A DNA stretch of 64,000 nucleotides from positions 1,536,001-1,600,000 of the forward strand of contig OY970340.1 in assembly GCA_963717465.1 (NCBI GenBank), given 5' to 3'. Of the stretch, positions 17,791 to 47,681 are shown piece after piece (within the stretch, counting starts at the first letter, position 1; every line of letters begins with the position of its first letter). The DNA comes from Candidatus Bathyarchaeota archaeon. GTDB taxonomy: Archaea > Thermoproteota > Bathyarchaeia > Bathyarchaeales > Bathycorpusculaceae. Under the pieces are notes generated by a model. The model saw only the letters and a program-made list of their open reading frames with translations. It was not told the DNA's origin and searched no databases. A program made the position numbers and the translations under genes.

Positions 17791-17818
17791 TCCCGAAAAG
17801 CTGAGGATTCGGCTAAAG

Positions 17819-17891
17819 AGCTGGGGATGGGAATTGAACCCATATAGAGCAGCTCTGCAGGCTACCGCCTGAACCATTCGGCCACCCCAGC
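17819..17891 (-). tRNA. tRNA-Cys(GCA)
   Basis: Reverse complement GCTGGGG...GTAGC-CT-GCA-GA-GCTGC...GGTTCAATTCC...CCCCAGC-T. Confidence 0.95.
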
Positions 17892-17958: not shown

Positions 17959-18321
17959 TTATTTCTTAAAGGCTAAACCTGAAAAAAACGCGACGATTTT
18001 GTCCTCTTTTTTAACTGTAACATTGTATAGCCCTGTTGTTTTCCCATCATTCATCCTGACTGCCTCAGCTGTTAAGGTATCTCCTTCGATTGACGGTTTA
18101 AGAAAATGTATGCTAACTTGCACTGCTACAGCGACGTTATCTCCAAAGTTGCATGCTTGGGCAAAAGCGTAATCTGCAAGGCTAAAGATTGCCCCGCCAT
18201 GCGTGAAGCCTAAAGCGTTCGTGTGATTCTTTTCAACCTTCATGGAAACTTTCGCATAACCATCCTTTGCTTCCAATAGTTTAATTCCCAAGTTTTCAGC
18301 AAACCAGTCTGTTCCCTTCAT
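17959..18321 (-). CDS. paaI: PaaI-family hotdog thioesterase
   Basis: NALGFTHGGAIFSLADYAF. Confidence 0.88.
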   Translation of the reverse strand: MKGTDWFAENLGIKLLEAKDGYAKVSMKVEKNHTNALGFTHGGAIFSLADYAFAQACNFGDNVAVAVQVSIHFLKPSIEGDTLTAEAVRMNDGKTTGLYNVTVKKEDKIVAFFSGLAFKK

Positions 18322-19419: not shown

Positions 19420-19420
19420 G

Positions 19421-20298
19421 TTATTCTCCTTTTTCGCCGAATAAGCCAGTAGGCTTGATAATGAGTACAATTATCAGCAAAGCAAACGCTATAGCGCTTG
19501 ACCAGATTCCACCAAGAAACAAAGTTGCCATCTGCTCAGTAATGCCATACAGTAAGCCAGCCGACGATTGCTCCTCGTATGCTTCCTAAGCCTCCCAGAA
19601 TAATTACTGCGAAAGCAATGATTGTTGGCATCTCCCCGCTTACATTATTAAATGAAAATACTATGCCGTAGAATCCTCCAGCTGCAGCAGCTAATGCGGT
19701 TCCTACCGCAAAAGCGATGATGTAAATTTTTTCAACGTTAATTCCCATAAGCATAGCTGTAAGACTAGATTGGCTGGTAGCTCTCATAGCTAATCCAATC
19801 TTTGTTCGATACATTAAAACTCCAAGGGCTAAGAGGATAATAACTACCGCCGCGATAACAACAAGAATGTCATAGCTAATAGAAATGTCTTGCAAGTTCA
19901 AACTTAAACCGTTAACAGGGCTCACAATCATGTGAGAGTTATTTCCCCAAAGAAGCACTGATGGCGTTTTCAAAGATGTAAATCAATCCAAGACTAACAA
20001 AAATCTCGTTCAACTTATCCGTGCCTAAGACCTTGCGAAAAGTAAACCGTTCAATAACGACACCTAGTACTGCGACGATTGCCATAGAGACAACAATAGC
20101 TACATAAGCGTTTAATCCAGCTTCAACTGAGATGGCCCAAGCGGCAAAAGCTCCAACGGTAAGAAACTGTCCATGGGCAAAATTCGCAAGTTTCATCACC
20201 CCAAAAATAATGTTTAGCCCAGTTGCTAAAAGCATGTAGACGCAGCCAATGGCCACACCCCAGATTAAAGCGAAGATGAAAGTCGATGCTATTATCAT
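19421..20298 (-). CDS. livH: ABC permease LivH (two frameshifts, near 19950 and 19560)
   Basis: GLNIIFGVMKLANFAHG; GLAMRA; ILGGLGSIRGA; tail IIKPTGLFGEKE* in a third segment. Confidence 0.8.
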
Positions 20299-20422
20299 GC
20301 TAAACCTTTTTCCTCTTTGCCATAATCAATTGGCATTTGGCTCATCTATTTCTCACAAAAGTATTTAAAACATATTCGTTTCGAAACCAAAAGAAAAAAG
20401 GAATTGTGATAGGAAGGCTTGT

Positions 20423-21851
20423 TTAGCTTCCAGAGACGTATCCGTCTGGCAGAGTGAAGGTCGTTTGATTAAAGTCGCTTATGCCTGCAGCAGTTGATGG
20501 CCAGATGATTTTAGACTGCAATTTGTTAGTTGTTGAGTTCAGATAGAGTTGCTCCATGAACGTTATTGGCTGTATTTCATGATAGCTGATGCCTATACTG
20601 CTAGAAGTTCCGTTGCCTGTGCTGAACTGTATTTTGCCAGTCTGCGTAAGTATGAGGCTATCAGGCATATTCGTGTTCTCTAATGCATCGCGAACAGATG
20701 CTTTATCAACTGTTCCTGCACTTTCGATTGCTGCTTTAGCGATGTAAAATGCATCGTAAGTGTCAGCGCCCATCATTCCAGGCATCACTCCTAAGTCTGC
20801 GTTAAATGTCGTTGCGTAAGTTCCAACTGCTGATGAGTACGAAGGCATCATGAATGGATCCATTTTTGACTCCAGCAGAGTACCATTTCCCTCGGCCATA
20901 TTACCCATGCCTTCAAGTAAACTATAGAACTGTGGGTCTTGATTGTTCTCGACTGCAACGTAAACAGTTTTTAGTCCAACAGTAACTCCATCCTTCCTGA
21001 ATTAACGACGGTGTTAAGTTTGGGTTTTCAGCGACAAATACTGCATCCGGATTTGCAGCTTTAGCATTGTCAAGTGCGATTGCTGCGCTTGGATATAGTC
21101 AGTTACGACATGCAGTGTACCCTTGGTCAGCCACGACAGTGATTGGCAGACTTTCGTTTTGTATCCAGTATTTGGTTGCTTTATCAACGCTTTGGCCGAA
21201 AGCGTCATTTCGGTAGACTATGGCAAGGCTGAAGTTTCGATCAGGTGCGACAATTGGTTTCATTACTTGGGTAAAGAAATCAACTACTGTTTTAGTGTAG
21301 TCGTAGGTTGTGGTGCAATAGTGGAACATGTAACTCATTCCATCAGCATCGGTGATACTGGTGCTTGCTGTAGCTCCCTCGCCGCCATAGTTGCCTTGTG
21401 GTCCGCGTCTTGTTACAAGAGGGTTTGACGCACCGGTTATTATGAAGGGAATCTTATCTTGTATTGCCACGACTTCATCAGCGAGTGTTGCTGCGCTGCC
21501 ATATCCGCCAATGAACATGTCAACAGGAGTTTGGCTCTCTAATTGACTTACTGCTGTTTCAGCGGCAGATCCAGAAGAATCAGTGCCTGTGTCAGCGACT
21601 GCCAAAGTTATGTTTACTTTTGTACGCCAACTGGAAACGTAAACGCCGCCTTGATCGTTAATTTGATTAACAGCCAACTGAGCCGCGTGATCCATATCTT
21701 GTCCTATTGAGGTTGACATAGGTGCAACTAAGCCAATTACAATGCTTCTTGCGTCTGGTGAAGGTTCAATGTATTGAGTGTATACTACTACTCCTACTGC
21801 AGCTATGATGATTATTACAATTACGATTATAGCTATTGTTTTTCTTAGCAT
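20423..21851 (-). CDS. livK: ABC substrate-binding protein, LivK/LivJ family (frameshifted in about 20900-21120)
   Basis: N-terminal anchor; IGLVAP...AVNQINDQGG; YDAFYIAKAAIE.AGT. Confidence 0.75.
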
Positions 21852-27583: not shown

Positions 27584-28063
27584 TTGTTTATAACAAAATC
27601 AGTACAGGGTGCCTGTTTGACTATACCTCAAGTAAGCGTATTCCTGGATAATCATCCTGGATCCCTTCATGACGTAATGATGCAGTTAGACAAGAATCAA
27701 ATCAAAGTTTTCGCCTTATCCATCGCAGATGCAGGCGAATTTGGCTTAGTGCGAATGATAACTCAAAAACCTCAAAAGACAATTCAACTTCTTGAAGACG
27801 CAGAATTTAACCTTGCAAAATCTAAAAAGAACACTGAAGCCACCGCAGTTTTCATTACTGAAGAAGACAATCTGTCAAAGATAACAAAAATCCTCGGAGA
27901 GGGCGGCATAAACATTGAATATGCATATTCTTCAGCAATCCATGTAGAAGGCAAAATTGCATTAATACTACGACCCAGCAATATTGAGAAAGCCGAGCAA
28001 ATGCTAACAGCTAAAGGCATATTCATCCTTTCACTTGACCAAATCGAAAAATACTTCCAATAA
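27584..28063 (+). CDS. tandem ACT-domain protein (paaK-associated type); true start probably about 27617
   Basis: QVSVFLDNHPGSL...ALSIADAGEFGLVR; GINIEYAY. Confidence 0.85.
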   Translation: MFITKSVQGACLTIPQVSVFLDNHPGSLHDVMMQLDKNQIKVFALSIADAGEFGLVRMITQKPQKTIQLLEDAEFNLAKSKKNTEATAVFITEEDNLSKITKILGEGGINIEYAYSSAIHVEGKIALILRPSNIEKAEQMLTAKGIFILSLDQIEKYFQ

Positions 28064-28339
28064 ATAACAAAGAACCTACAGATTTCAATAGATTAGCGAG
28101 TTTAAATCGCATGACGATATCAATAACTTTTTCAATTTGGGCTGCATTCTGCCATGGAAAGTTCACGAAGCATTTGTAAACGCTAAACTTGCGCCTTATC
28201 TTGGTTTCTCGCGCACCCGAACAGTTTGGCACTTTCGTTAATAGAAGACAATAGGAAGTGTTCTTGCAGAGATCATGGCGTAACATTGCTTTAAATCTTT
28301 AACTATTTCGTTGCTAACATAAAATAAGAGTGGTCTCGG

Positions 28340-29884: not shown

Positions 29885-29919
29885 AAAGTTTAACAAGTGA
29901 ACTTGTGCAAAGGGCTTAG

Positions 29920-30538
29920 ATGACCAACAAAAACGGACTGATGTTCCTTGTTAAAACTCAAGACTTAAAGATTCTTGTTGTTGGATCCGGAAAGATTGCT
30001 CGAAGAAAGATCTTTAAGCTCTCCGATGCAGGAGCAGATTTCACCGTTGTATCCAAAGATAAACCATCATTTACAGCCGCAAGAGTGAAGTTTGTTGTTG
30101 ATGAAGGGTTAAACTACACCAAAAAAAACATCAGTAATTTTGACATTATAGTAGCAGCGACTAACAATAAAGAAGTAAACAACAAAATTGCAGAACTCGC
30201 ATTGAAAGAAAAAACATCAATGTGGTAACCAACCCTGAAAAATGCAACATTTTCTTCCCAGCAATAATAGATTTCAAAAACTTCCAGATAGTGTAACGAC
30301 ACAAGGCAAAAGTCCGCTTATGGCAAAAATGCTCAAAAAGAAAATCCTAAAAGCAATCAAGAAAGAGGATCTTGACCAGATAAACTTTGCAATCCGAGCT
30401 AGAGAAGTTTTAAAGAGAAACAATTATGGCGCAGAAGAGATAAAAGAATTCGTTAAATCCATAGACAAATAAGCTGTAGATAAAATAACAGATGATGAAA
30501 TCCTAAAACGGGCAAACAAGCTTCGTAAAGTATTTTAA
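29920..30538 (+). pseudogene. sirC: precorrin-2 dehydrogenase (SirC/Met8-like) with two frameshifts and an in-frame TAA
   Basis: VVGSGKIARRK, AATNN.EVN, then NVVTNPEKCNIFFPA, then VTTQGKSPLMA in successive frames; TAA at 30470-30472 followed by open frame to 30538. Confidence 0.75.
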
Positions 30539-30575
30539 AATAACTGAAAGTTCAAGAATTAAGGGTCAGCGTTTT

Positions 30576-31952
30576 TTATCTGTGCCTGTAAGATTGGCAT
30601 GAATTAACGAATTTGCGTACTGTTTTTGGGCATGCAAGATAGAGGAGATGCGTATACATTCCCAAGGTCTCGTTATAGCGCAAGCCATCCATTGAGTTGT
30701 TGATGCCTTTTCCTCGAAGAACCTTGAACATAAAATTAGTTTCATTCAGGTTTTGTATGGCTGAGTAGTGGAACTCATGACCTTTAAGGCGGTCGCCCTG
30801 CTCAGCGATTGGATTGGCAGCTGTTGATTCGAGTAAAACGTAGCTGAGAGCTTGAGGTTTATCGCGCATCACGGCTTCACCGTTGAATACGCCGGCCATT
30901 CTCATTTTTGAACCTCCAGTTGTTATTGAATTGCACAGGTACATTAATCCGCCGCATTCGCCAATGATCGGCATGCCATTGTCAGACTTGTCTTTGACGT
31001 CCTTTCTTAAAGACGAGTTAGCTTCCAGCTGACGTGCGAAAACCTCAGGATAACCTCCCCCAATTATTAGGCCTGACGTATCATCGCCAACATTCGTATC
31101 GGATAAACTGTTTATTGTGTGCACGTTAACGCCACACTGCCGTAACGCGTCAATGTTGTCGGCGTAATAGAAAGTAAATGCTGAATCAGTGAATACTCCT
31201 ACAGTCACATTCGGTCCACTATTGTCTGGAACTTTTTCTTCTTCAGGAGCCTCCAGCGGCGGAGCAGTTTTCATTATGTTGAGAAGGCCTTCAAGATCAA
31301 ATGTTTCTTCAAGCATTAAACCAACAGATTCGATGACTCGAAGTGTCTCAGCGTTTTCCTGAACCGTGAGAAGACCTAAATGTCTCTTCGGAATCGCGAA
31401 GGACGAATCACGATATACTACGCCTAAAACAGGAATGTTAGCATAATATGAAATCGCGGATCGCAACTTGTCCTCGTGACGCTTGTCACTAACTTTGTTG
31501 AGGATTACTCCGGCTACCTGCACGTTTTTATCAAAAGCTTTTAAGCCTAAAAGGTTGGCTGCTGCACTTCTCGTGATACTTTGACAGTTCAACACAATTA
31601 TCACAGGTGCATTGAGAATCTTGGCAATGTGCGCTGTGCTTCCATGCTCATCCAGAGGCGATTCAGCCTCGTAGAGGCCTCTTACACCCTCTATTATTGC
31701 AAGATCTGCTTTTGCCGCTGACTTTATGAACGAGCGCTTAATCGTCTCTTCATTCATGATCCATGAGTCAAGATTTCTCGAGGGCACGCCTGAAGCTATC
31801 GTATGGTAGCCTGGGTCGATGTAGTCGGGTCCAACTTTAAACGGCTGAACCCTGTAACCATGCTTATTCAGCAGCCAAAGAAGAGCCGTGGTCACTAATG
31901 TTTTTCCAGCATCGCTACCGTTGGCTGATATAACTACTCTAGGAGTGCTCAA
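30576..31952 (-). CDS. cfbB: Ni-sirohydrochlorin a,c-diamide synthase (CbiA/CobB homolog)
   Basis: GKT, FKVGPDYIDP, EGVRGLYE, RHLGL, ECGGLMYL, GHEFHYS; operon context. Confidence 0.85.
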   Translation of the reverse strand: MSTPRVVISANGSDAGKTLVTTALLWLLNKHGYRVQPFKVGPDYIDPGYHTIASGVPSRNLDSWIMNEETIKRSFIKSAAKADLAIIEGVRGLYEAESPLDEHGSTAHIAKILNAPVIIVLNCQSITRSAAANLLGLKAFDKNVQVAGVILNKVSDKRHEDKLRSAISYYANIPVLGVVYRDSSFAIPKRHLGLLTVQENAETLRVIESVGLMLEETFDLEGLLNIMKTAPPLEAPEEEKVPDNSGPNVTVGVFTDSAFTFYYADNIDALRQCGVNVHTINSLSDTNVGDDTSGLIIGGGYPEVFARQLEANSSLRKDVKDKSDNGMPIIGECGGLMYLCNSITTGGSKMRMAGVFNGEAVMRDKPQALSYVLLESTAANPIAEQGDRLKGHEFHYSAIQNLNETNFMFKVLRGKGINNSMDGLRYNETLGMYTHLLYLACPKTVRKFVNSCQSYRHR

Positions 31953-32736
31953 ACCTTAAAACCTCTAAGTCTTCATCCGAAATGAATTCCGGAACTCTTG
32001 AGAACTCATTTTTAAGGACGTTACTTGCAAGCTTCTTGAACGCTGTAGCCTCAACTGAGGAAGGGTAGGCCTCAATAACAGTTTTGTTTATGCGATCACA
32101 GACCTGAACAATTTCCGATGTGGGAGCCTCACCGATGATCGGCGTCTGGATTGCACGAGATAACTGTTCTATGTACTTGCGGCCTTCATCGCTTGCCTTG
32201 TTGTAGAGGAGACCGCATACTTTAACTTTTAACGATTTGAAACCATGGCAGAGATTGTTTGCGGCAAACAACGACATAAAATCATCTGAGGACACAATGA
32301 AAGTGTCTTTTGCATAACCTTCCTTGACCACTATTGCAAGTCCTCCACAAACAATGTCCGCTGGTACATCAAAAATTACCACATCATAAGAGCCGACAAT
32401 ACCGCAATCGTTAAGATACTTTAGACCAATAATCAAGCCTCTTCCTGCACAACCTACACCTGGCTCTGGACCTCCGATTTCAACGCAGGATACCCCATTA
32501 AACCCAGTTCGCAAAAACAATGAAGAATCAGGCTTCTTGTTTGTTTTCATAATCTCCAAAAGCGGCTTAATCCTCTTACCAACTATATTTATTGCAGTGT
32601 CTGATTTGGGATCACAGCCTACCAGAAGAGTCTTAAGCTTTTCGCCTCCGTAAACAGCGGCGATATTGCTTGAAATTGTTGATTTTCCTATCCCGCCTTT
32701 ACCGTAGACTGCAAATGTCCTTGTCATTCTAGCCAA
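31939..32736 (-). CDS. cfbC: Ni-sirohydrochlorin a,c-diamide reductive cyclase ATP-dependent reductase (NifH-like)
   Basis: YGKGGIGKST, GCDPK, GGPEPGVGCAGRG, DIVCGG; adjacent to cfbD. Confidence 0.88.
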   Translation of the reverse strand: MARMTRTFAVYGKGGIGKSTISSNIAAVYGGEKLKTLLVGCDPKSDTAINIVGKRIKPLLEIMKTNKKPDSSLFLRTGFNGVSCVEIGGPEPGVGCAGRGLIIGLKYLNDCGIVGSYDVVIFDVPADIVCGGLAIVVKEGYAKDTFIVSSDDFMSLFAANNLCHGFKSLKVKVCGLLYNKASDEGRKYIEQLSRAIQTPIIGEAPTSEIVQVCDRINKTVIEAYPSSVEATAFKKLASNVLKNEFSRVPEFISDEDLEVLRFEHS

Positions 32737-33814
32737 CCGCCTTTCTCAGGGCGTATCCAAATCTTGATTGCTGAACCCGTTTATCTACTCCAAGGGAAAC
32801 TGCGTGAGCGTCTCTATCAGCAACGGCAAATGTGTATCCGAGAGTTTTCAAATTTGATATTGCTCTGGTACCTACGGTGACAACTACGCATTTCATGGCA
32901 TTTTCCAATTCTACGGCATGAGGTATCCCTGCAATAATGGCAATGTCAGGGGGATCATTTAGCAAAAATTCTTTTGCTTTAATGCCAGTTAATGGGTACT
33001 CATCCAGTCCTCCAGTGATGAAATCTAATTTTACCTGGTTATCTTGCAAGGTCTTGCGTACTGTGGATGCATATGATCGTATCCTTGGCAACCCAATATT
33101 CTCATCAAGGTTTGCAATGTATCTAACCTTCGCTCGACTCCTGACTGCCACTTCATTCATTGCAAGCAGAACGTCTGAGTAGAGAAAAACGGTCTCTTTC
33201 TTTGCGTTAAGAACGCAGTCTATGCGAGCACCTTCTTTGGCCAGTTTTATGATTGAGCGGGCGACTGCTACTGGATTATCGCCAGGCTTAGGCTCAAGGT
33301 ACTCACCCCTAGCGGTTCCTCTTTTCTTTTCTAAATCGGTTGCCATTTCTAGCATTTTTTGTTGGCGATTGAATTCTTCTTGTGGGATAAGACCGAGACC
33401 TACTGCTTCTTTTAGCACCATTACGGCGCCAACAGTGTTATCGCCACTCCCACTGTGGACATTACAGCATATCGTCTTCTTGGATACGCCTGCTTCTTGT
33501 GCAACTTTCTTGAGGTCTTCTCCAATAATCATGCTAGCGCAGCTGCCGACAAGCCCTATCAAGTGTGGACTGAAAAGTTCATCAACTCTTTTGAGAACCT
33601 TTGCAAGCTTTTGCTCAGCGCCGAAGACAAAATCATCATCTGTCAACGCAGTAGTTATTACTTTCACTCCGTCTTTTTCAAGGAGCCGCGCTGGTCTAAA
33701 GCAGCATCCCGATGGACCATGTAAAACTATTACATCAGTGTTAAGATCCCTCAGAGTGTACATTGCGGCAGCAAGCGGACTTGGTCGAGGATGCATAATA
33801 ATTGACATATTCAA
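32729..33814 (-). CDS. cfbD: reductive cyclase catalytic subunit (NflD)
   Basis: HPRPSPLAAAMYTLRDL, HGPSGCCF..ARLLE.DG, CASMIIGEDL, NAKKET, TGGLDEYP. Confidence 0.92.
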   Translation of the reverse strand: MNMSIIMHPRPSPLAAAMYTLRDLNTDVIVLHGPSGCCFRPARLLEKDGVKVITTALTDDDFVFGAEQKLAKVLKRVDELFSPHLIGLVGSCASMIIGEDLKKVAQEAGVSKKTICCNVHSGSGDNTVGAVMVLKEAVGLGLIPQEEFNRQQKMLEMATDLEKKRGTARGEYLEPKPGDNPVAVARSIIKLAKEGARIDCVLNAKKETVFLYSDVLLAMNEVAVRSRAKVRYIANLDENIGLPRIRSYASTVRKTLQDNQVKLDFITGGLDEYPLTGIKAKEFLLNDPPDIAIIAGIPHAVELENAMKCVVVTVGTRAISNLKTLGYTFAVADRDAHAVSLGVDKRVQQSRFGYALRKAVG

Positions 33815-35112
33815 CGCCGCTCCAAATACAATACTGATTTACCATTTAGCGAATTCATATCAACAATTTTCTTATTCTTTAACAATGACTTTACAGCATC
33901 TCCGAGCTCGCCAAATAGCGCTACTTGGTTAACTTGGCTGCAATTGTTTATTACATTTGCAAACTCGTGTATGTCCATAAACCCGCAGGTTGTCTTGATC
34001 GTCCCGCCGATGCATAGCGAAACAGGAGAAGAATAAACTTCAATAAAATCGTTAATGGATTGCTGCAACGACACTGGATTAATCGAGGAGCTGATATTAA
34101 CAATTCTTTTTGGAACTTTTTCGTCAAGAACCATCTTATTCGCTACGCCATCAAAACTTTCCAATTGTGCAATCTCCTTATCGCCTCCACCTAGAAAGAC
34201 TACGATGGTCAATGCAAGCAAAAGGTTCTCTACATGTTGCCTTCCAACTAATCTGGAACTGGCATACACTGGGTACTTTTCAGAGACATGTTTTCCTTTA
34301 AAATTTTGAAAGTTGTTAAATGTGGCATTGAACCTGATGCCGGGTGCACTTAACTGAACACTGTCAGCAGTGACTTCAGCTGTTTTTCCCATGGTGGAAA
34401 ATCGCTGCACATTTTCGAGAGCACAGAGCAATGGATCGTCAGCGTTAACAAGCGTAAAAGCAGATGGTCGCTTGTTTTTAATCATTGATGTCTTGGCATC
34501 GAAAGCGTGTAGAGTCTCAGCCGCAATCGGGTAATTATCGTATACGTTCTTTATGATTCCCAGATCGGCGAGGCCTGTTCCGCCGAGCGATACCTCAAAT
34601 ATGGCTGCGTCGAATGGTTTGGGGCAAAGCCTGACTGCTCGAATAATGTTTGCTGGTGTTGTGCTGACTTTTCCAGTTAGAGGCGTTACTGTGCCGCGGT
34701 TAACGTGAAAGATGCCCTCACTAGTTAGTGCAAGTATTGAGAGCCGACTCTTAATCATGTGCAGAGCAGCTAGTATAGTTTCAGTTTTTCCATAGCTTCC
34801 CGTAATTTCGACGACAGGGCACTTTAATTCTTTTTCCAGAAGATAATTGACTGCTTGATGAGCGGTAATTACACGTTTGTTTTTCAGGTCACCGAGACGT
34901 TTCCTTGGGAAGTGAATTGGGCTTATTATAAGATCAAATCCATCAAGATCTGGCAATTCTTTTTCTATTCTGAAGGTTCCTTTGAAGTTATCCGCGACTT
35001 CTTTGCTGACGGTTTTGTGTACATCTGCACATACTACCTCGTAGCCTTTCTTCACGTATTCTTCTGAAAGGGTGAGGCCGCCGTGTGTTGCATCAATCAC
35101 TAAAACTTTCAT
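33811..35112 (-). CDS. cfbE: coenzyme F430 synthetase (Mur-ligase-like)
   Basis: N-terminal LVIDATHGG, SPIH, EITGSYGKT, TPAN, FEVSLGGTG, YPIA. Confidence 0.88.
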   Translation of the reverse strand: MKVLVIDATHGGLTLSEEYVKKGYEVVCADVHKTVSKEVADNFKGTFRIEKELPDLDGFDLIISPIHFPRKRLGDLKNKRVITAHQAVNYLLEKELKCPVVEITGSYGKTETILAALHMIKSRLSILALTSEGIFHVNRGTVTPLTGKVSTTPANIIRAVRLCPKPFDAAIFEVSLGGTGLADLGIIKNVYDNYPIAAETLHAFDAKTSMIKNKRPSAFTLVNADDPLLCALENVQRFSTMGKTAEVTADSVQLSAPGIRFNATFNNFQNFKGKHVSEKYPVYASSRLVGRQHVENLLLALTIVVFLGGGDKEIAQLESFDGVANKMVLDEKVPKRIVNISSSINPVSLQQSINDFIEVYSSPVSLCIGGTIKTTCGFMDIHEFANVINNCSQVNQVALFGELGDAVKSLLKNKKIVDMNSLNGKSVLYLERR

Positions 35113-35502
35113 TTAAAGCGCCTCTGCAGACGAAATGACGTCGCTGAGTATGTCAATTAGCCGTGGGTCTTTTCCGATTGGTTCAGCGTACACGAGAAGA
35201 ACCTCTTTATCCTTAGCTTTTAATGTCCTCTTTTTGGTGCCTGGCTTTAATCCTAATTCTTCAGGTATATCTTGGTCAATATGAATTCCTCTTGCCAAAA
35301 AGACGGGGACAACTATTATTTTCTCCATGCCAGCATCTATCGCTCTTTGCATAACTGTTGGAATCGACGGATCGTTGATTTGCATGAATGCTGAAGAAAC
35401 AAAATCATAGCGACTCTTAAGCTTTGAAGCGTAGAATTCAATCGTTTCTTTGTTGTATGGTTCTTTGCTTCCGTGTCCTACTAAAATTATTCCAGTTTTC
35501 AT
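35113..35502 (-). CDS. cfbA: sirohydrochlorin nickelochelatase (short CbiX type)
   Basis: GHGSKEPYN and VPVFLARGIHI..DIP; 129 aa; context. Confidence 0.85.
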   Translation of the reverse strand: MKTGIILVGHGSKEPYNKETIEFYASKLKSRYDFVSSAFMQINDPSIPTVMQRAIDAGMEKIIVVPVFLARGIHIDQDIPEELGLKPGTKKRTLKAKDKEVLLVYAEPIGKDPRLIDILSDVISSAEAL

Positions 35503-36974
35503 TAGTTTTGCTTTCCCTCCTTTAGTTTCATTAAAACGCCATCAAGCGTGTGAACATCAGATACCTCAGGGTTAAGATTATACACGTCCAGTTCCTTAGC
35601 TGTCTCAGAACCAATACATACAGTTCTCACTTTCTTTAGCTTTGAGATAAGATCATCAAGAGCGTCTTTAAGCTTGAAGTATTCAATTATATAGTGAACT
35701 GAGGATCGGCTTGTAAAAACAACCGTGTCAACGCCACTTGCGAGTTGTTTGTAAAAGCTTTCTAGACCTTGCTCGTCTCGTTCTGTTCTGTATAGCTTGA
35801 ATTCGGTGACTTTCATGTTGGCGCTGTGAAGCTTTTCGGAGAGAGAACTGTCAGCAAATGTGCTCCGCACTAATGCAACGCGACCCAACTCGCCTTTTTT
35901 ATCGATTAGTATTTCAAGGAGTCCAGTGCTGCTGAAATCCGAAGGAATAGTTTCGACGCTAATGCCTTTTGCTTCCAAAGACTTCTTTGTAGATGGCCCA
36001 ATAGCGTAGACCTTTACGCGTGACAAATAATCGAGATTTTCACGGTCAAAGTTAATCATGTCTACGGCTCTTGGGCTCATGAAAACAAGCGAATCGAATA
36101 ATTTTGATTTTAAGGCCGCAAGAAAAGCAGTTATTTCTTCTTGGTTGGCAATCAACTTTATAACGGGCGTGACGATGGGAGTGAATCCTGAAGTGAAGAA
36201 TTTTGAGGCAATAGATGTATCTAAAGAGGTTAAAAGAACCTTATTAGTACTCAGTGCTTTTGCAACTACATCGCCTATGACCACAACTACTGAATCTGCC
36301 TTTTCACTTACTTTGTCAGCAATGGTACTCACTGTTCCAAGAGTGACCGACAGGTCTTTTCCCTTTAGCGTCAGGGCCGCCACAGCCTTTTCTGGATTCA
36401 TCCCGCTGCCCATGAACGTTTGCATAATGCTCAGGAGGTTTTTCTTTGCCATCAACAATACAATTGTTCCATCGAATTTCGCATGCTTAGCAAAATAAGA
36501 TGCGTCTTCAGGCGATGCATGATGCCCCGTTAAGATCAGAATTGAAGATGAGACTTCCCGTATAGTTAAAGGGATACCAGCAAAAGTGGGTATAGCAATT
36601 GCAGAAGTTAAACCGGGAACCAACTCAAACTCGATGCCTGCATCTTTCAGCGCGAGCAGTTCTTCCCCCCCTCTGCCAAATATGAACGGATCGCCACTCT
36701 TTAACCGGACAACCGATTCGCCTTCATTCGCTTTTGTAGTTAAAGTTTTGATTATTTCTTTTTGAATAGCTGGGTCATCACCAGGCTCTTTTCCCATATA
36801 AATCAATTCAACGCCTGGTTTAGCTAATTCAATTACAGAGCTGTCAACAAGCCGATCATACACTACTACATCCGCCTCAGCTATCACCTTCGCAGCCTTG
36901 ATAGTGAGAAAATCTATACTGCCAACGCCCGCACCAACCAGATACACCTTTCCTTTTATCAGTTTAGCCTCCAA
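35502..36974 (-). CDS. cobA-hemD: uroporphyrinogen-III C-methyltransferase / uroporphyrinogen-III synthase fusion
   Basis: LVGAG.G, YDRLV, RLKSGDPFIFGRGGEE, VPGLTS; C-terminal HemD features AIGPST and FTSRSSV. Confidence 0.9.
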   Translation of the reverse strand: MEAKLIKGKVYLVGAGVGSIDFLTIKAAKVIAEADVVVYDRLVDSSVIELAKPGVELIYMGKEPGDDPAIQKEIIKTLTTKANEGESVVRLKSGDPFIFGRGGEELLALKDAGIEFELVPGLTSAIAIPTFAGIPLTIREVSSSILILTGHHASPEDASYFAKHAKFDGTIVLLMAKKNLLSIMQTFMGSGMNPEKAVAALTLKGKDLSVTLGTVSTIADKVSEKADSVVVVIGDVVAKALSTNKVLLTSLDTSIASKFFTSGFTPIVTPVIKLIANQEEITAFLAALKSKLFDSLVFMSPRAVDMINFDRENLDYLSRVKVYAIGPSTKKSLEAKGISVETIPSDFSSTGLLEILIDKKGELGRVALVRSTFADSSLSEKLHSANMKVTEFKLYRTERDEQGLESFYKQLASGVDTVVFTSRSSVHYIIEYFKLKDALDDLISKLKKVRTVCIGSETAKELDVYNLNPEVSDVHTLDGVLMKLKEGKQN

Positions 36975-37873
36975 AACGTCTTAACTATCTCGTCTTCAAG
37001 CATCAGTTGAGCAGCACGCCTACCAGACAATACGGGGTCGCCGAACCCCATATCTATAGATTCTACCTTAAACTTGGCACCATCTACAGAGTAAACACCC
37101 GCGGTTATTCTCAGTCGCCCGTCTTTTGCAGTGGCTGTGCAGCCAACTGGCGAGGCGCATCCTCCACCTAAAGTTCGCAGAAATTCCCGTTCAGCCAAAA
37201 CTTCAGCTTGATATGCAGGAGAATTTATGCTTGCAACTAAATCCGTCAAGTACTGGTCAGAGGAAGAATTGCGAACAAGCACGCAGATTGCGGCTTGACC
37301 TGGGCTTGTCGGAAATGACTCTATGCTAAGTCGCTCTACAGTCTTCGGTAGCAAGCCAAGCCTCAAAAGTCCAGCTTCGGCTAATACAGCGCCATCGCAG
37401 GATTCGCCCATTACTTTCTTAAGTCTCGTGTCTACGTTGCCTCTCAGTGGAAGGATCTGGAGGTCTTTCTTGACAGCCATTAATTGTGCTTTTCGCCTCA
37501 CACTGCTAGTGGCCAATTTTGCGTGCGCTGGTAAGGCTGCGAGTGACGGGTAGCGGGCGGAGATGAAAACATCATTCGGTGATTCGCGGTCAGGAATCGC
37601 ACCTAGTTTGATACTTGGTGAAATGTTTAAGGGCACATCCTTCATGCTGTGGACTGCCAAATCAATCGTTCCGTCTATTAATGCGTTATCAACTTCTTTT
37701 TCAAAAGCGCCCTCACCAATCTTGTGCATCGGCGTGCGCGTTATGATGTCGCCTTGTGTTTTTATTGGGACAACTTCAAACTGGGCATCTGTGAACTTGG
37801 CTAGTTTATTGATTACAATGTCTGTTTGTATTAGTGCTAGTTTGCTGCCTCTTGTCCCTATTTTGATCTTCAT
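36959..37873 (-). CDS. hemC: hydroxymethylbilane synthase
   Basis: GTRGSKLAL.Q, AVHSMKDVP, LRGNVDTRL, GGGC..PVG. Confidence 0.95.
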   Translation of the reverse strand: MKIKIGTRGSKLALIQTDIVINKLAKFTDAQFEVVPIKTQGDIITRTPMHKIGEGAFEKEVDNALIDGTIDLAVHSMKDVPLNISPSIKLGAIPDRESPNDVFISARYPSLAALPAHAKLATSSVRRKAQLMAVKKDLQILPLRGNVDTRLKKVMGESCDGAVLAEAGLLRLGLLPKTVERLSIESFPTSPGQAAICVLVRNSSSDQYLTDLVASINSPAYQAEVLAEREFLRTLGGGCASPVGCTATAKDGRLRITAGVYSVDGAKFKVESIDMGFGDPVLSGRRAAQLMLEDEIVKTFWRLN

Positions 37874-39135
37874 TAAGGTTTCACTTGAGTCTGATTTACC
37901 GATTTAATCGAGATCTTCATGGTTTCGATGGTTTTTTCAATGTCTTCTTTTGAGTGTGCAGTTGAAAGGAAAGAACATTCAAATTGAGAAGGAGGTATGT
38001 ACACTCCGTTGTCTAAGAGCGATCTGTGGAACTTTTTGAAGGTTTCAAGCTTAGACTTTTTCGCCGAGGCATAATCGATTACCTTCTCAGACGTGAAGAA
38101 TACTGTAAAGATGGATGCTAAAATTGATAAGTAAAAATCTATTTTTTCGTCGCTTAGAATGTCGCTGATTGCTGAGCATAAAGAGCTAGTGTTCTGCCTA
38201 AGCTGGCGGTACAGTGATTCGTCGAGTTTTCGCAAAGATGCAATGCCGGCTGCCATGCTTAGAGGGTTGCCATTGAAAGTTCCAGCGTTATACATGCGGC
38301 CCTCAGGAGCGACAAGATGCATAATATCCTCTCTACCCCCAAAGGCTCCCATTGGGAGACCACCACCTAAGACTTTACCAAGCGTTGTTAGGTCCGCATG
38401 CACATTATAGTACTCTTGAGCACCTCCTTTTGCGATTCTAAACCCTGTTATGACTTCATCAAAAATGAGGAGGGCACCAGTCTCATCGCATCTTCTTCTG
38501 ATCTCGTCAAGAAAGCCTGAAAGAGGCTGCACAAGTCCTATATTTCCCATAACTGGTTCAACTATTACGCAAGCAGTTTCTTCTCCTATCTTATCTAAAG
38601 CGTGAAAATCGTTGAAAGGAATAACTTTAGTCTTCTCGGCTACCACTTTGGGTACTCCATCTGAAAAAGGAGCCTGAGAAGTACCTACACCATTTACCAT
38701 TAAAGAGTCCACTGCGCCATGGTAGCAGCCGTCAAACTTGACGACGACCTCTCTTTTCGTGCAGGCCCTGGCCAGCCGGATGGCATTGGTTGTAGCCTCA
38801 CCTCCAGAGTTCACAAATCGTAACTTTTCAATAGAAGGAAAGGCTTTCTTAACTTCTTCTCCGAGCATAATTTCAAGGGCTGAAGGTGTTCCGTAAACTG
38901 TTCCTTTTGAAAGTTGATCTTTCAAAGCGTCTACAATAAATTGTGGTGAATGCCCAAATAGCAAGACCCCGTACGCCATACAGTAATCGATGATTTCTCT
39001 TTTATCAGCAGTGTAAAGCCTTGAACCGTGGGCATGATCTGTAAAAAAAGGATAAGGATCAAAATATCTCACCGGACTGTTGACTCCTTTCGGAAATATC
39101 GCTGAGCTTCTGGAGAAGAGTTCCTTTGAGTCCAT
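37873..39135 (-). CDS. hemL: glutamate-1-semialdehyde 2,1-aminomutase
   Basis: GVNSPVR, FDEVITGFR, GKVLGGGLP, GTFNGNP. Confidence 0.95.
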   Translation of the reverse strand: MDSKELFSRSSAIFPKGVNSPVRYFDPYPFFTDHAHGSRLYTADKREIIDYCMAYGVLLFGHSPQFIVDALKDQLSKGTVYGTPSALEIMLGEEVKKAFPSIEKLRFVNSGGEATTNAIRLARACTKREVVVKFDGCYHGAVDSLMVNGVGTSQAPFSDGVPKVVAEKTKVIPFNDFHALDKIGEETACVIVEPVMGNIGLVQPLSGFLDEIRRRCDETGALLIFDEVITGFRIAKGGAQEYYNVHADLTTLGKVLGGGLPMGAFGGREDIMHLVAPEGRMYNAGTFNGNPLSMAAGIASLRKLDESLYRQLRQNTSSLCSAISDILSDEKIDFYLSILASIFTVFFTSEKVIDYASAKKSKLETFKKFHRSLLDNGVYIPPSQFECSFLSTAHSKEDIEKTIETMKISIKSVNQTQVKP

Positions 39136-40113
39136 TTACTTGTCCTCTTTTAGCCATTCAATCAACTGCGGAGTGAAGTATGAGATTATGATATCGGCGC
39201 CAGCTCGTTTCATAGAAAGCACGGTTTCTAATGCTACCTTCTTCTCTTCAGTCTTTGTGTGTTCACAATACAATTTGATCATCACGTATTCGCCGCTAAC
39301 TTGAAATAGGGCAAGAGGTCGATAGAAGCGTCTCTTGATTTGAGCTGCAATATCAAGGCAGGGAAGAGCTGGCTTAACCATAAGGATGTCCGCACCTTCC
39401 TTGACGTCTAATGATGCTTCTAGTAGAGCTTCTTTCTTGTTGCGAACATCCATCTGGTATGATGAGCGATCACCGAATGCTGGTGAGGAACCGACTACTT
39501 CTCTAAATGGGCTGTAGAGAGAAGAAGCATATTTTGTGGTGTATGACATTATCAACGTGTCATGAAAGCCATTGCTGTCAAGCATGGTTCTTATGGCAGC
39601 AACCTGTCCATCTGTCATCGCTGAAGGCGCCACAATATCTGCTCCAGCTTCGGCATGGCTCACAGCTACTTTGGCTAAAGACTCGACAGTCTTTGTGATG
39701 TTAATTCGCCCATTATCATTTATTATTCCACAGTGACCATGACTCGTATATTCGCAGAGGCAAACATCAGTTATCAAATTAAGGGTTGGAAATTCTTTCT
39801 TTAGAATTCTTAACGACTCTTGAACGACGCCGTCTTTTGCATACGCATCTGATCCTAAATCGTCCTTCTTTGAGGTTATTCCGAAGATAATTACAGAATT
39901 AAGACCATTTTTCCAAATGGGACGAACATAGTCAGCGACTTGATCTATGGGCAGTCGCATTAATCCAGACCTGAAGACCTCCTCGATCTTTCCACCTTTT
40001 TTTACGAAAAGAGGAAGAACCAAGCTTGATGGATTTAAACTGGTTTCAGCTACAAGATTTCTTATCGCGGGGGACTGTCTCAACCTGCTGGGCATAATTG
40101 CGTTCATTAACAC
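39136..40113 (-). CDS. hemB: porphobilinogen synthase (Zn type)
   Basis: DVCLCEYTSHGHCG, KYAS..Y.PFR, MVKPA, QVSGEY. Confidence 0.95.
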   Translation of the reverse strand: MLMNAIMPSRLRQSPAIRNLVAETSLNPSSLVLPLFVKKGGKIEEVFRSGLMRLPIDQVADYVRPIWKNGLNSVIIFGITSKKDDLGSDAYAKDGVVQESLRILKKEFPTLNLITDVCLCEYTSHGHCGIINDNGRINITKTVESLAKVAVSHAEAGADIVAPSAMTDGQVAAIRTMLDSNGFHDTLIMSYTTKYASSLYSPFREVVGSSPAFGDRSSYQMDVRNKKEALLEASLDVKEGADILMVKPALPCLDIAAQIKRRFYRPLALFQVSGEYVMIKLYCEHTKTEEKKVALETVLSMKRAGADIIISYFTPQLIEWLKEDK

Positions 40114-41359
40114 AAACCTCCTTTAGGATATTGCGAAGAATTTTTACGTGATCAGCATGATTTTCAGATTCTCGTAAGGGTTTTATGAATGGAATCATCA
40201 GGTCGCGCATTAGGGAATATGAAAAGTCGCTGATTACTTTCTTCTGTGCCTCGTCAAATTCCTCTTCTTTTAGGGCTCGCTCTAAATTCTTCTGTCTTTT
40301 TTCTTCACTCCAATTCATAAAGTCAGAAATCAAACTTGAATGCGGTGCCACTTCAATCCTCTTAAACACGTTTTTGATGTCTTCATCGATGATCTTTTCA
40401 GCTAGAAGGATGGCAGATTCCTTTTTGCGCTGATTATTTTTCGCTTGGTCTGCCAATTCATCAAGGTCAAGCAGGTCTACACCACGCATCTCCTTAACAA
40501 TTGGGTCTACAGCCCTTGGATTTGACGCATCGATAAGGAGAAGATTTCCTTTCTTTCCGTCTTGCTTTCTCCGCTTAAGGGCAGAAGCAACATTGCTCGC
40601 TGAAATTATTCGATGAGGTGCTGAAGTTGCACAAACGGCGACATCAGACTTGGCAAGAACTTCTTCAAGTTTATCAAAGTTGACTGCTGTGCCGGATAAC
40701 ATCTCCGCAAGTTTTTTGGCTCGGGTAAAAGTTCTGTTTGCAACAAGGATTGTTTTTGTTTTTTCTTTTGCCACAGCTTTAGCCACTATGCTTCCGATTT
40801 TTCCAGCACCGATGATAGCAACCGTTCGACCATCGAAAGACTTTAGCTTTGATCTAGCTAACTTCACAGCAAGGTTTCCTATGGACACAGTGCCCTTGCT
40901 TATAGTGGTCTCTCTTCTGACTTTTCTCCCAGCTTGAACAGCACTTGTAAATAGCAGGCGCAATTCAGAACCTACTGTGCCAGTGTTACGAGCTAAATTG
41001 TATGAGTCTATAACTTGGTGAAGGATTTCATTCTCGCCAAGTAAAAGAGATTCAAGACCTGATGCAACACGAAATATATGCTTTACCGCTTGGGCATCCA
41101 AGTAAACATCTGCGAGATCTTGAGAAGAATAAACATTCGATGATTTTTCGCAAAGAAGAGATTTTAACATTTCAGGTTTAAGCCCTTCTAAGCTGCTTAT
41201 GTATATCTCTACTCTATGGCATGTCTGAAGTATCACACATTCAGCTACGCCCTCTACCTGTTTGAGCTCAAGCAAAGTTTTGCTGACATTCCTGAATGTG
41301 AAATTTTCCAGTATCCGAACAGGAACCCTTCGGCAGCTTATAGAGACACAGCTAATCAT
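40046..41359 (-). CDS. hemA: glutamyl-tRNA reductase
   Basis: LQTCHRVE, VASGLES..LGE.EIL.Q, GAGKIG, NRT, D.SNPR.V. Confidence 0.92.
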   Translation of the reverse strand: MISCVSISCRRVPVRILENFTFRNVSKTLLELKQVEGVAECVILQTCHRVEIYISSLEGLKPEMLKSLLCEKSSNVYSSQDLADVYLDAQAVKHIFRVASGLESLLLGENEILHQVIDSYNLARNTGTVGSELRLLFTSAVQAGRKVRRETTISKGTVSIGNLAVKLARSKLKSFDGRTVAIIGAGKIGSIVAKAVAKEKTKTILVANRTFTRAKKLAEMLSGTAVNFDKLEEVLAKSDVAVCATSAPHRIISASNVASALKRRKQDGKKGNLLLIDASNPRAVDPIVKEMRGVDLLDLDELADQAKNNQRKKESAILLAEKIIDEDIKNVFKRIEVAPHSSLISDFMNWSEEKRQKNLERALKEEEFDEAQKKVISDFSYSLMRDLMIPFIKPLRESENHADHVKILRNILKEVCVNERNYAQQVETVPRDKKSCS

Positions 41360-41400
41360 CTATATCGCGCCCATCCTATTGGGAGGCTCTCTTTTTAACG

Positions 41401-41424
41401 TTTTTGTTTCATATGAAACAAAAA
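41401..41424. promoter_or_regulatory. perfect 24-bp palindrome upstream of the hem-cfb operon (candidate operator)
   Basis: TTTTTGTTTCATATGAAACAAAAA equals its own reverse complement; 42-65 bp upstream of the hemA ATG. Confidence 0.55.
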
Positions 41425-41959
41425 TTTATTACATGTTTTAGTTGACCGCTGCTCAAAAAACATCAGCACAAGCATCCGAAGACGATGGAAAAGGATGAAG
41501 ATTAAATATAAGCGTCTGACACGTTGCCAAACAAACTGAGAAAAAATTAGAAATTTTAAAATTACAGAAAAATAACATTATTTTTAGGAGAGCTGATTCC
41601 TTTTAGTCAATCAAAAGAGAAATGCAAAGTTCTCTATTGTAAACTGAAAATAATTGTCCCCGACAAATTTACTATCAAAGAATATAAAAGAAAAACCGAT
41701 TACATTTTGTTAAGCCCACGAAAGCACATTTCCAAAGAAAAAGATAATTCTTATTCCATAACAGACGAAAGCGGAGAAAAAATTCCAAATATCGAATTGA
41801 TTTTGGTAACCAAATGCAATTTTAAAACCGAAGAAGTCAACGTTTCCGCAGATTTTTTCAGCCTTAAAGGATTGCCGAAAAATATTGCGATAAGAAACAT
41901 TATTTACTGCAAACCGTCAACAGAGGAAACTTGGGAAGTAACCATCTAAGCAAATGAGA

Positions 41960-42634
41960 TTAAGATAGAAAGATTGCAATACACTTAATGGTCGCCCAAA
42001 GAATTCGCATGTTAGCTTTTAATGTACCGCCTATTCTAGGATTTTTTCTCCTCGAAGGCGGCAAATATTGTATATCCTTGATTTTAAGATTATTCTTTTT
42101 TGCGAGGACAATAAATTCGCCTCCAAAGGTTTCTCCTCCTTTAAGGTTTAATTCTGAAACGAATTCTTTTTTGAAAACACGGTAATTCGAAAATGAATCA
42201 GTCACGCCGACAAGTTTCCCCAATGTTTTAGAAGCAATTCTTTCTGAAAAACGCGGGATAATTGTACGAGAAGCAGAAACAACATCAAATTCACCAATAA
42301 ATTTTACGAGCACAGGTATAAGATCAGGGTTGTTCTCCAAGTCAGAATCAATCGTGACAATAACAGGATACTTTGCCAGTTTCATTCCATAAAGCAAACC
42401 TTTTGTTTGGCCTTCCCGTTTTTTTGTCACTGCCACATCTGCAAAACGCTTGGCAACTTCAAATGTGCCGTCTTGCGATTCATCGTCCACAACTATTATT
42501 TCATACACATTCGGTTTTAGGACTTCTCTTACTTGCCTGATTAACTCAGCAATATTTTCTCTCTCATTCCAAGTAGTAGTAACGACTGAAATCCCAGGCA
42601 CGCTTGAATTATTCTGCAATTTTTTCAGTTTCAC
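41960..42634 (-). CDS. glycosyltransferase family 2
   Basis: TTWNE, VVDDES.DGT, IDSDLEN. Confidence 0.88.
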   Translation of the reverse strand: MKLKKLQNNSSVPGISVVTTTWNERENIAELIRQVREVLKPNVYEIIVVDDESQDGTFEVAKRFADVAVTKKREGQTKGLLYGMKLAKYPVIVTIDSDLENNPDLIPVLVKFIGEFDVVSASRTIIPRFSERIASKTLGKLVGVTDSFSNYRVFKKEFVSELNLKGGETFGGEFIVLAKKNNLKIKDIQYLPPSRRKNPRIGGTLKANMRILWATIKCIAIFLS

Positions 42635-45592: not shown

Positions 45593-47681
45593 TTATTTGT
45601 CGATTGAAATTCTGCTTGTGCCTGCTTCTTTCTCTAGAATTACAACGTGTTCAGCTTTACTTGCGAAGGATTCACTGTGCGTTACGGCAATGATTTGCTC
45701 AATTGCTTTGAATCGGGCTATTGCCTCAGCTAAATGTTCGATGCTGCCGTCTTCATTTCCCAAGTTTTCCGTAGGCTCATCTAGTACAAGCATGCTTAAT
45801 CCGTGCCCAGTTCTTGATTGCATGATGAGTTGTCCTAAACCTAATCGATAAGCGAACGCAAGTAATGTTCGCTCGCCGCCAGAAAGATTTGCAACCTCAC
45901 GATTTACTCCAGATTCGCTTTTGACATACGGCGTATATGTATCGTCGATAATTACGTTCAAAAATGCGGTTTCGCTGCCTACTAAACCATCTAAAACCTG
46001 TTGAACGAAACTTCGCAAAACACCCACGAACTCGCTTCGCAGCAAAGGCTGAACACTCCGATAAGCATCCCGAACAGCGCCTAAAACCTCAATCGTTTTA
46101 CGAATTTTCTCGACGCGCTCAACCTTTTGCATAGAAACATCAATTCGCTCTTTCAAAATATCCAAACGTTCAAAAAGATCAGCTTTGCGATTTTCCTTAG
46201 TGCGCATGTCAGAATCAACCTGATAGTACTGCTTGAAAAGCTGCTCTCTGCGGGCTTTGGCTGATTCAAGCTCTGATAAATTGAACCTGCTAATTTCAAG
46301 GTTCACTAGTTCAAGTTGATTTTGAAGTTCAGCTTCTAACTTTTGCTTGCTCTCAAACTCGCTTGAAATATTGCCCATATTTAGTTCTTCTTCAGAAATA
46401 CGCGCTTTAAGATCGTCAGCTCTGGTAACGCAGTTTTGCAGGTTAGAATATGCTTCAGATGCAATTTTTTTGCTTTTCTTAAGTTCCTCAATTTCAACTT
46501 GCAACTGTTTAATGATTTTTTCTCGTTCACAATTCTCATGTTCAATGCGCGTAAGTAGATTAGTCTTGTATTCACCATCTAATGGTTGCACGCAAAGGGG
46601 ACACTTGTTCTCCTGCGACAACGAAATAGTTCTTTTTTGGTCGGTCTGCAAGCTCCGTAGAAGTTGCTTCTTGCTCAGCTTTTATAGTGCTGATTTTATC
46701 GTCAAAAGATGCCAGAAAAGAACCTAATGCTTCAAAAGGCTGACTTACAGGTAATCCTGCTTGTTCAAGTTTACTTAAACACAATTTAGCTTGGATATCA
46801 ATAGAGTTTTGGCGCTGCAGCAAATTGTCAAGAATAGTTTTTTTACCCTCAAGTCTGTCATTCAATGAAGCAAGTGCATCCTTAAGGTTTAGCAAGTTAG
46901 CGTTTATTCTAGCTTCTTTTCGCTTCAACTCTTCGATTGCCACTTTTTTCTCTTCCAATCGCTTAAGCGTCTGATCAGCATCAGCCAGCACTTTTTTGGC
47001 AATAGCAAGTTTCTGGGTTAAACCTTCAAGATCCATTTCTAAAAGTGCAAATTCTTCACTTGCCCTATTGTATTCAGCGCTGAGTTTTTCCAATCCAGTA
47101 ACATCTGAATCTTTTTCGTAAATTCTCTTCTCGTTATCATAATCTCGTTGATACTGTGCGATGTTGCTCCATGCAGATTCATAATCTGACAGGCCGAACA
47201 ATTCGTCTAAGCGTTTTTGCCTATCGCGTGGTGCTAAATCTAAGAGCTCTTTTAGATGCTCCTGCCTGAACCATACTATTTCACGGTATAGATCTTTATC
47301 CAGACCTGTAATTGCCTTAAACTGTTCAGCAATTGCATCGCTCTTCATACTTGCAATGAGCGTTTCCTCTTCAAACAGTTTAAGCTCCTCAAAATTCTGG
47401 GTTACGCTTTTTCCGCGTCTTTTTAACCCCCGTATTAACTTGTAAGTTTTACCGCTCTGAGTAAATTGAACTGTTACCTTTCCTGAATCTGCTCCTTCGC
47501 GAAGCAGATATTCGAAGCTTCGGCCGATTGAATCGCCGAATAAACCAAAATCCAAGGCATATAAGACACTGGATTTTCCGCAACCCAAACCGCCTACAAG
47601 ACAGTTAAATCCTCTGGTGAATGGCACCGTTGATTTAACGTGAGACCGCAGGTTCTCAAGCTGGACTATTTCAATTTTCAC
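45593..47681 (-). CDS. rad50: Rad50 ATPase (one frameshift near 46655)
   Basis: Walker A GCGKSS, Q-loop, Zn-hook CPLC, LSGGE, LDEPT; follows mre11. Confidence 0.88.

Follow-up and report, generated by a model that had tools for sequence, protein, structure and literature searches.

A candidate glutamyl-tRNA-to-coenzyme F430 gene unit in a peat Bathyarchaeon that also encodes a group II methyl-coenzyme M reductase

Methanosarcina carries the cfbABCDE genes, with which the pathway to coenzyme F430 is said to have been defined biochemically by Zheng and colleagues in 2016 and Moore and colleagues in 2017. To our knowledge, the Methanosarcina cfb cluster is not joined to the hem genes of the tetrapyrrole trunk. 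Here we describe a cluster in which cfb and hem genes stand together. It lies in a 64-kb window of a Candidatus Bathyarchaeota genome (positions 1536001 to 1600000 of contig OY970340.1, called C1, a single contig of 3,053,889 bp). Positions given without a prefix are those of the window. The cluster encodes the same five Cfb enzyme families as Methanosarcina, with the same inferred chemistry. Its closest described counterparts are found in Methanosuratincola petrocarbonis LWZ-6 (CP130488.1, locus L019) and M. verstraetei LCB70 (CP186953.1, locus L020), two methyl-reducing methanogens of the Thermoproteota that have been brought into culture. The former is an isolated methanogen according to an excerpt of its description (PMC12244365).

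Both Methanosuratincola loci have the order hemA-hemB-hemL-hemC-cobA-hemD-cfbA-cfbE-cfbD-cfbC-cfbB, a convergent sirC, and an exact copy of the palindrome core found upstream of the cluster described here. The Cfb model scores of the host and of M. petrocarbonis are also similar. However, protein identity between the clusters is only 42 to 64%, G+C content (GC) is 56% there and 43.5% here, cobA and hemD are separate genes there, the host CfbD falls outside the Methanosuratincola clade, and the host is a Bathyarchaeon. This type of cluster is already present in cultured Methanosuratincola, and the uncommon part is the host lineage. We read the eleven genes as a unit that would lead from glutamyl-tRNA to F430 and supply the methyl-coenzyme M reductase (MCR) of the same genome, and that was probably acquired as a block. 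We put the probability of this reading at about 80%.

The initial annotation had posed the puzzle of F430 synthesis without MCR. It had correctly noted that the window lacks mcr, mtr, and corrin ring-methylation genes. We found no MCR, Mtr, or corrin ring-methylase family in the window's open reading frames (ORFs) of at least 60 amino acids (aa) (Pfam, 75 of 76 ORFs, with 28023-28286 on the minus strand left out). However, the puzzle disappeared in a genome-wide search, which found mcrB-mcrD-mcrC-mcrG-mcrA at C1:1660034-1665078 on the plus strand, about 83 kb beyond hemA on the same contig, with the usual marker genes. The F430 pathway and MCR therefore occur together in one genome. McrG scored 375 bits (cut-off 172), McrA 684.7, 186.1, and 59.4 bits across three frames, and McrB 286.4 and 342.1 bits across two frames; McrC and McrD are also present. 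The island around mcr further holds methanogenesis markers 2, 3, 5, 6, 7, 8, 15, and 17, component A2, DUF2117, two small regulators, HdrA2, HdrB, and HdrC, and a fused ComDE (sulfopyruvate decarboxylase) at contig position 1685493.

Neither MtrA nor the Mtr complex was found in the genome; the metabolism predicted from this is methyl-reducing, like that of Methanosuratincola. Next to mcr, at C1:1645070-1657360 (L120 5070-12215 and L121 593-5358), are three MtaA/URO-D-type methyltransferases, an MtrH-like protein, a corrinoid protein, and a RamA/AcsV-type activase. This arrangement is as reminiscent of methoxy-group demethylation systems as of methanol use. Beside marker 17, at C1:1672111-1673091 (L122 7111-8091), is a radical SAM protein resembling NifB (317 bits against nifB, under the cut-off). 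A small NifX-like protein is encoded immediately after mcrA, at C1:1666796-1667128 (L121 14796-15128).

The initial annotation had allowed for a divergent MCR or an alkyl-coenzyme M reductase (ACR) elsewhere in the genome. The McrA found here does not support either idea. Its nearest homologue is 85% identical, followed by Archaeoglobi at 76%, Methanosuratincola at 72%, Korarchaeum at 69%, and Nezhaarchaeales at 65%. A quick tree of an unaltered 468-aa fragment places it in a 20-row clade together with Methanosuratincola, Korarchaeia, Nezhaarchaeales, and Archaeoglobi (Shimodaira-Hasegawa-like approximate likelihood ratio test [SH-aLRT] 99). We therefore assign it, by sequence, to the canonical group II (Thaumarchaeota-Aigarchaeota-Crenarchaeota-Korarchaeota [TACK] type), and not to ACR.

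The ten minus-strand ORFs of the cluster run head to tail from 41359 down to 30576 with no internal stop (Table 1). Neighbors abut or overlap by at most 68 nucleotides (nt) when the longest ORF starts are used, which suggests that the ten genes probably form one operon. Families were named with NCBIfam models, which have curated cut-offs in bits, and with Pfam. The ORF list, these family searches, and a frame comparison of sirC bore out the initial description of ten co-oriented, intact hem-cfb genes and a convergent, damaged sirC. The family-typical motifs reported for CfbD and CfbE were also located, and CfbA exceeded its cut-off. In CfbD, HPRPS is at residue 8 and GCCF at residue 36; across 20 aligned homologues, C36 is nearly invariant and C35 fully so (numbering of the 359-aa protein P0121). 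CfbE has DATHGG at residue 7, and F430_CfbE is its best match by far. CfbC has the P-loop GKGGIGK at residue 12, and CfbC is its top-scoring family; it also has cysteines in GVGCAGRG and IVCGG, which we take to be the cluster ligands.

Table 1. Features of the hem-cfb cluster and of the palindrome upstream of it. Positions are those of the window, except in the last row. Scores are in bits, with the curated cut-off where one is given.
Feature	Position	Strand	Evidence or remark
sirC, precorrin-2 dehydrogenase	29920..30472	+	convergent with cfbB; Pfam NAD_binding_7 5.2e-18; frame interrupted twice
cfbB, Ni-sirohydrochlorin a,c-diamide synthase	30576..31952	-	F430_CfbB 521.8, cut-off 560
cfbC, NifH-like ATP-dependent reductase subunit	31939..32736	-	F430_CfbC 276.9, cut-off 402
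cfbD, reductive cyclase catalytic subunit (methanogenesis marker 13)	32729..33814	-	TIGR03282 448.3, cut-off 268.4
cfbE, coenzyme F430 synthetase, Mur-ligase-like	33811..35112	-	F430_CfbE 241.1, cut-off 250
cfbA, sirohydrochlorin nickelochelatase, small CbiX type, 129 aa	35113..35502	-	F430_CfbA 136.4, cut-off 120
cobA (uroporphyrinogen-III C-methyltransferase) and hemD (uroporphyrinogen-III synthase), one 490-aa frame	35502..36974	-	CobA part TIGR01469 232.4, residues 8-238; HemD part Pfam HEM4 1.3e-43, residues 256-479
hemC, hydroxymethylbilane synthase	36959..37873	-	TIGR00212 305.5; sole copy in the genome
hemL, glutamate-1-semialdehyde aminomutase	37873..39135	-	TIGR00713 530.4, cut-off 527.3
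hemB, porphobilinogen synthase	39136..40113	-	NF006762 411.1
hemA, glutamyl-tRNA reductase, first gene of the predicted operon	40046..41359	-	TIGR01035 312.4
perfect 24-bp palindrome, candidate operator	41401..41424	.	core 14-mer 41406-41419; 46 nt upstream of the hemA ATG
exact palindrome core in other loci	L019 2484-2497; L020 2484-2497; L022 1831-1844; L026 2507-2520; L136 4705-4718		

CfbA and CfbD are above their curated cut-offs, and CfbE, CfbB, and CfbC are below theirs. For CfbB, the generic cobB model (522.4 bits) is level with F430_CfbB. We used M. petrocarbonis LWZ-6 as a control, and its orthologues scored 124 (CfbA), 231.7 (CfbE), 440 (CfbD), 273.8 (CfbC), and 490.4 bits (CfbB), all five slightly under those of the host. 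Because the orthologues of a cultured methanogen score lower still, the three low scores appear to be a property of the clade, for which the cut-offs fit poorly. The genome also has a separate CbiA-like gene, 37% identical to CfbB, at about 2.197 Mb in a corrinoid salvage cluster. The seamless cobA-hemD frame corresponds to two overlapping genes in M. petrocarbonis. This fusion could be an artefact, because the assembly has insertion errors and one extra base close to the stop codon of cobA would be enough to produce it.

The enzyme activities and the co-transcription of these genes are predictions from the genes themselves. In the pathway that we propose, HemA, HemL, HemB, HemC, and HemD would lead to uroporphyrinogen III. 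CobA would methylate this to precorrin-2, which SirC would oxidize to sirohydrochlorin. CfbA would then insert nickel, CfbB would amidate the a and c side chains, CfbC and CfbD would carry out the ATP-driven six-electron reduction with closure of the lactam, and CfbE would close the last ring. The ten minus-strand genes would be transcribed from the palindrome-bearing region upstream of hemA, and the F430 product would serve the canonical group II MCR about 83 kb away. The genes cover every step, SirC included, in agreement with the earlier view of a self-contained unit from glutamyl-tRNA to F430.

The host itself is a peat Bathyarchaeon. Among 120 listed homologues of the AMP phosphorylase encoded beside the cluster, six bear an organism name; five of the six are Bathyarchaeia or Bathyarchaeota (77 to 80% identity), and the sixth is labelled a bacterium. 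This fits the Bathyarchaeia-type host proposed at the outset. The genome has a GC of 40.1% and a marker completeness of 88%.

No McrA was found in 24 congeners and 16 genomes of the same order. These genomes also had no CfbD over the cut-off; six of the congeners gave weak nif-like matches. In a draw of 401 genomes of the class, the host included, McrA was found in three (the host, G045, and G215) and CfbD in two (the host and G215). Within this draw, neither protein occurred in any of 39 congeners or 103 family members. The initial annotation had proposed a survey for genomes with cfb and without mcr, and the sampled genomes contain no case of cfbD without mcrA. G045, which is rated 100% complete, shows the reverse: it has a full-length canonical McrA (C1:244851-246497 of that genome, locus L130, 968 bits, 82% identical to Methanosuratincola), and no CfbD was found in it with either the family model or the host protein. 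This could mean MCR without F430 synthesis, or a binning issue. According to an excerpt of Hou et al. 2023 (PMC10321748), mcr or acr was present in 3 of 304 Bathyarchaeia metagenome-assembled genomes (MAGs). BA1 and BA2 are described there as ACR-like group III, and one Jinwuousiales MAG as group II. The present host resembles that Jinwuousiales MAG in being a member of the Bathyarchaeia with a group II MCR.

Gene order and composition both set the cluster apart from the surrounding DNA. In a 20-kb DNA query against five congeners, the flanks matched at 63 to 76% identity, and the stretch 29900-42090 had no counterpart except for short, weak matches to the congeners' own hemL, hemB, and hemA. 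The 20 kb around mcr likewise had no counterpart in congeners. The DNA between the two regions is mostly native (64 to 78% identity). A native stretch between two non-native regions implies at least two separate insertions. Among 265 windows of the genome, the cluster ranks at the 98.9th percentile for GC (43.5%) and at the 97.7th for tetranucleotide distance. The mcr island is host-like in composition, and Methanosuratincola clusters have a GC of 51 to 56%.

The trunk genes point in the same direction. HemL is 57 to 59% identical to Methanosuratincola proteins vs 46 to 47% to native Bathyarchaeial ones, and HemC 45 to 48% vs 38 to 43%. The native Bathyarchaeial order is hemB-hemL-hemC-cobA-hemD. 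The ten-gene order recurs in four of the 80 genome loci that contain a relative of CfbD: M. petrocarbonis, M. verstraetei, a Methanosuratincola MAG, and one further archaeon (L019, L020, L022, and L026; the contig of L022 ends before cfbB). A convergent sirC accompanies this order in three of these loci. Of the rest, five have cfb genes only and 71 are, by title, of the Methanobacteriales type, with cfbD alone in the DNA examined. Metagenome contigs of the Joint Genome Institute yielded ten related loci, with a best CfbD identity of 71% and none with Bathyarchaeial flanks. The missing counterpart in five congeners, the absence of CfbD from the sampled family, and the Methanosuratincola gene order support the possibility of transfer raised initially. 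We suggest that the operon was most likely acquired as a block, together with its control region, by the host lineage; the direction of transfer is something that we infer rather than observe.

Signs of a mobile element were not evident near the cluster. No tRNA gene adjoins it, as the only window tRNAs are at 140-217 and 17818-17891; no direct repeats of note flank it; and no integrase family appeared in the Pfam scan of the window ORFs. An Rfam scan of the whole window returned the two tRNAs only and no riboswitch.

The mcr genes do not read as intact frames. mcrA contains two frame breaks, and mcrB, mcrC, and mcrD contain one apiece; all five shifts are of the one-base insertion type. Outside its breaks, McrA is 80 to 86% identical to its nearest homologue and has no in-frame stop and no other lesion. 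Two peat metagenome runs supply contigs over the operon that are 85 to 97% identical to it, and related peat contigs are one base shorter at each of the five break sites. To calibrate these breaks, we used as a reference set 219 ORFs, each 200 aa or longer, from 395 kb of the closed congener G003; 140 of them have an orthologue here. The orthologue was split in 34 of the 140, in some genes by as many as five shifts. The frame changes were clustered, and one-base insertions made up 49 of the 53. A completeness of 88% despite a closed genome fits this picture of frame errors. We conclude that the mcr breaks are very likely assembly errors. A specific enrichment of frameshifts in mcr was considered and rejected, as the window-only rate of about 0.1 per kb was superseded by the higher, clustered rate in the G003 control.

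Frame breaks occur elsewhere in this genome as well. Examples are C1:384036-392399, 589252-611517, and 2522868-2523676 on the contig, and in the window livK, livH, and livM of a branched-chain amino-acid ABC transporter (18318-21851, four +1 shifts) and Rad50 (45593-47681, split once). Calls of pseudogenes in this genome therefore need read support. sirC passes through frames +1, +3, and +2 when compared with Methanosuratincola SirC, and its product is 52% identical to the SirC encoded convergently after cfbB in L019 and L020. A weak second sirC-like stretch lies at contig positions 1119745-1120026. The initial annotation had called sirC damaged; we cannot support this damage as evidence of decay, because about a quarter of the sampled conserved genes carry frame errors.

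Several observations weigh against the reading of an acquired unit that supplies a working MCR. Those that concern its origin come from the trees. In the CfbD tree, the host sits in a five-member clade (SH-aLRT 95) beside the Methanomethylicia and not inside it. CfbD and McrA are each on a branch of their own in the TACK-type clade, not nested in Methanosuratincola. The five-member clade includes P0123, which is 71% identical to the host protein. G215, a Bathyarchaeon from a different family, has a CfbD with the same 71% identity (possibly P0123 itself), and its cfbA, cfbE, cfbD, and cfbC genes are 60 to 79% identical to those of the host. Because the CfbD clade lies outside the Methanomethylicia, the donor could be another Bathyarchaeon. 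The separate branches and the G215 genes also leave room for transfer within the class, or for old vertical descent with many losses. Hou et al. 2023 (PMC10321748) argued that the single group II mcr that they found in Bathyarchaeia was inherited vertically. Descent of the present cluster from a methanogenic ancestor of the Thermoproteota or Bathyarchaeia, with loss in nearly all other Bathyarchaeia, would suit the host-like composition of the mcr island. However, CfbD and McrA were found in none of the sampled family members and congeners, synteny breaks exactly at the cluster, and the cluster is a compositional outlier. In addition, the McrA proteins of G215 and G045 are 81 to 82% identical to Methanosuratincola and only 63 to 65% identical to that of the host. 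Vertical descent thus appears unlikely. A misassembly, in which the cluster of a co-occurring methanogen was joined to Bathyarchaeial DNA, is suggested by the odd composition of the cluster and by the many errors of this metagenome-type long-read assembly. We consider it highly improbable. Native DNA begins within a few hundred bases on both sides, and a second, separate island on the same contig holds the matching MCR system. The cluster also has its own tree branch, is near-identical to that of no known methanogen (the best named match is 64 to 65%), and differs in GC from Methanosuratincola clusters. With native flanks on one contig and this GC difference, the cluster is not contamination or a stray Methanosuratincola contig.

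The remaining adverse points concern the use of the product. There are five shifts in about 5 kb of mcr and none in the 10.8-kb cfb cluster, a pattern that would also fit real decay of mcr. None of 54 contigs from three metagenome runs is at least 99% identical to this strain, so the shifts are not disproved for the strain itself. A search for RNA runs that contain the mcr stretch returned none. Both shifts in sirC are of the deletion type, the rarer class in this assembly (4 of 53 control frame changes), and sirC may be truly broken. ComA was not found in the genome, which at 88% marker completeness does not show that it is absent. If MCR had really lost its function in this strain, the intact F430 operon would be either a relic of recent date or a unit retained on other grounds, possibly because it holds the sole hemC and cobA/hemD. 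However, all five mcr shifts are of the insertion type that prevails in the control genes, where splits are common, McrA shows no in-frame stops or other decay, and the MCR accessory genes all read intact. Inactivation is accordingly quite improbable in our view. It is scarcely credible that F430, or a variant of it, is made for a non-MCR enzyme or for partner organisms. That proposal drew on the absence of mcr from the window and on nothing further. A complete MCR system is encoded in the same genome, and no extra tailoring genes were seen within or adjoining the cluster in the NCBIfam and Pfam scans. The presence of mcrBDCGA and its markers removes the need for MCR-independent use or export.

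The unit that we propose would also explain how the host obtains its tetrapyrrole precursor. The genome has no second hemC or cobA/hemD, and of 24 congeners just 12 have hemC. There is another hemA, broken into three pieces, and another hemB, which is isolated. In such a host, cfb genes that did not bring a source of precursor with them would serve no purpose, hence the trunk may travel with cfb. A host limited to corrinoid salvage, with no hemC or hemD of its own, would in this way gain the whole trunk along with cfb, and the block structure suggests how methanogenesis can move between lineages. The corrinoid salvage set lies at C1:2188442-2198398 (L144 442-10398) and comprises CbiZ, a BtuFCD-type importer, CobS, a MobA-like transferase, and a CbiA/CobQ-like amidase; no corrin ring-synthesis genes were seen near it.

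Bathyarchaeia are abundant in peat, and here a closed genome has a full canonical MCR system and its cofactor pathway, neither of which was found in the 103 sampled family members. A broader scenario, which we offer only tentatively, is that one species of an otherwise non-methanogenic genus of peat Bathyarchaeia became a methyl-reducing methanogen through separate blocks: an F430 operon with its own trunk and operator, and an island, at least about 40 kb long, that encodes MCR, activation proteins, Hdr, methyltransferases, and ComDE. According to an excerpt of a preprint (10.1101/2025.10.16.682713), peat group II mcrA sequences all look Methanosuratincola-like. If the scenario is true, some of the sequences given that name may be Bathyarchaeial, and the palindrome would be the binding site of a regulator of F430 synthesis common across the Thermoproteota.

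The 14-mer core of the palindrome has a single site in this genome, even when one mismatch is allowed. An exact core occurs in 5 of 143 loci searched (1.9 Mb), each time 37 to 70 nt upstream of the first gene of an F430 operon. It precedes hemA in the four loci that share the ten-gene order, and cfbA in L136, a metagenome cfb cluster without hem genes. Forms with one or two mismatches lie upstream of cfbA in three Methanomethylicota-type loci. As for a wider regulon in this genome, 18 sites were found at up to two mismatches vs a shuffled expectation of 13 to 29, and the idea was dropped. The palindrome has been kept across a GC range of 40 to 56% and a HemA identity of about 42%. Most simply, it would be a candidate operator kept with the operon, which makes it a testable entry point to how F430 synthesis is regulated.

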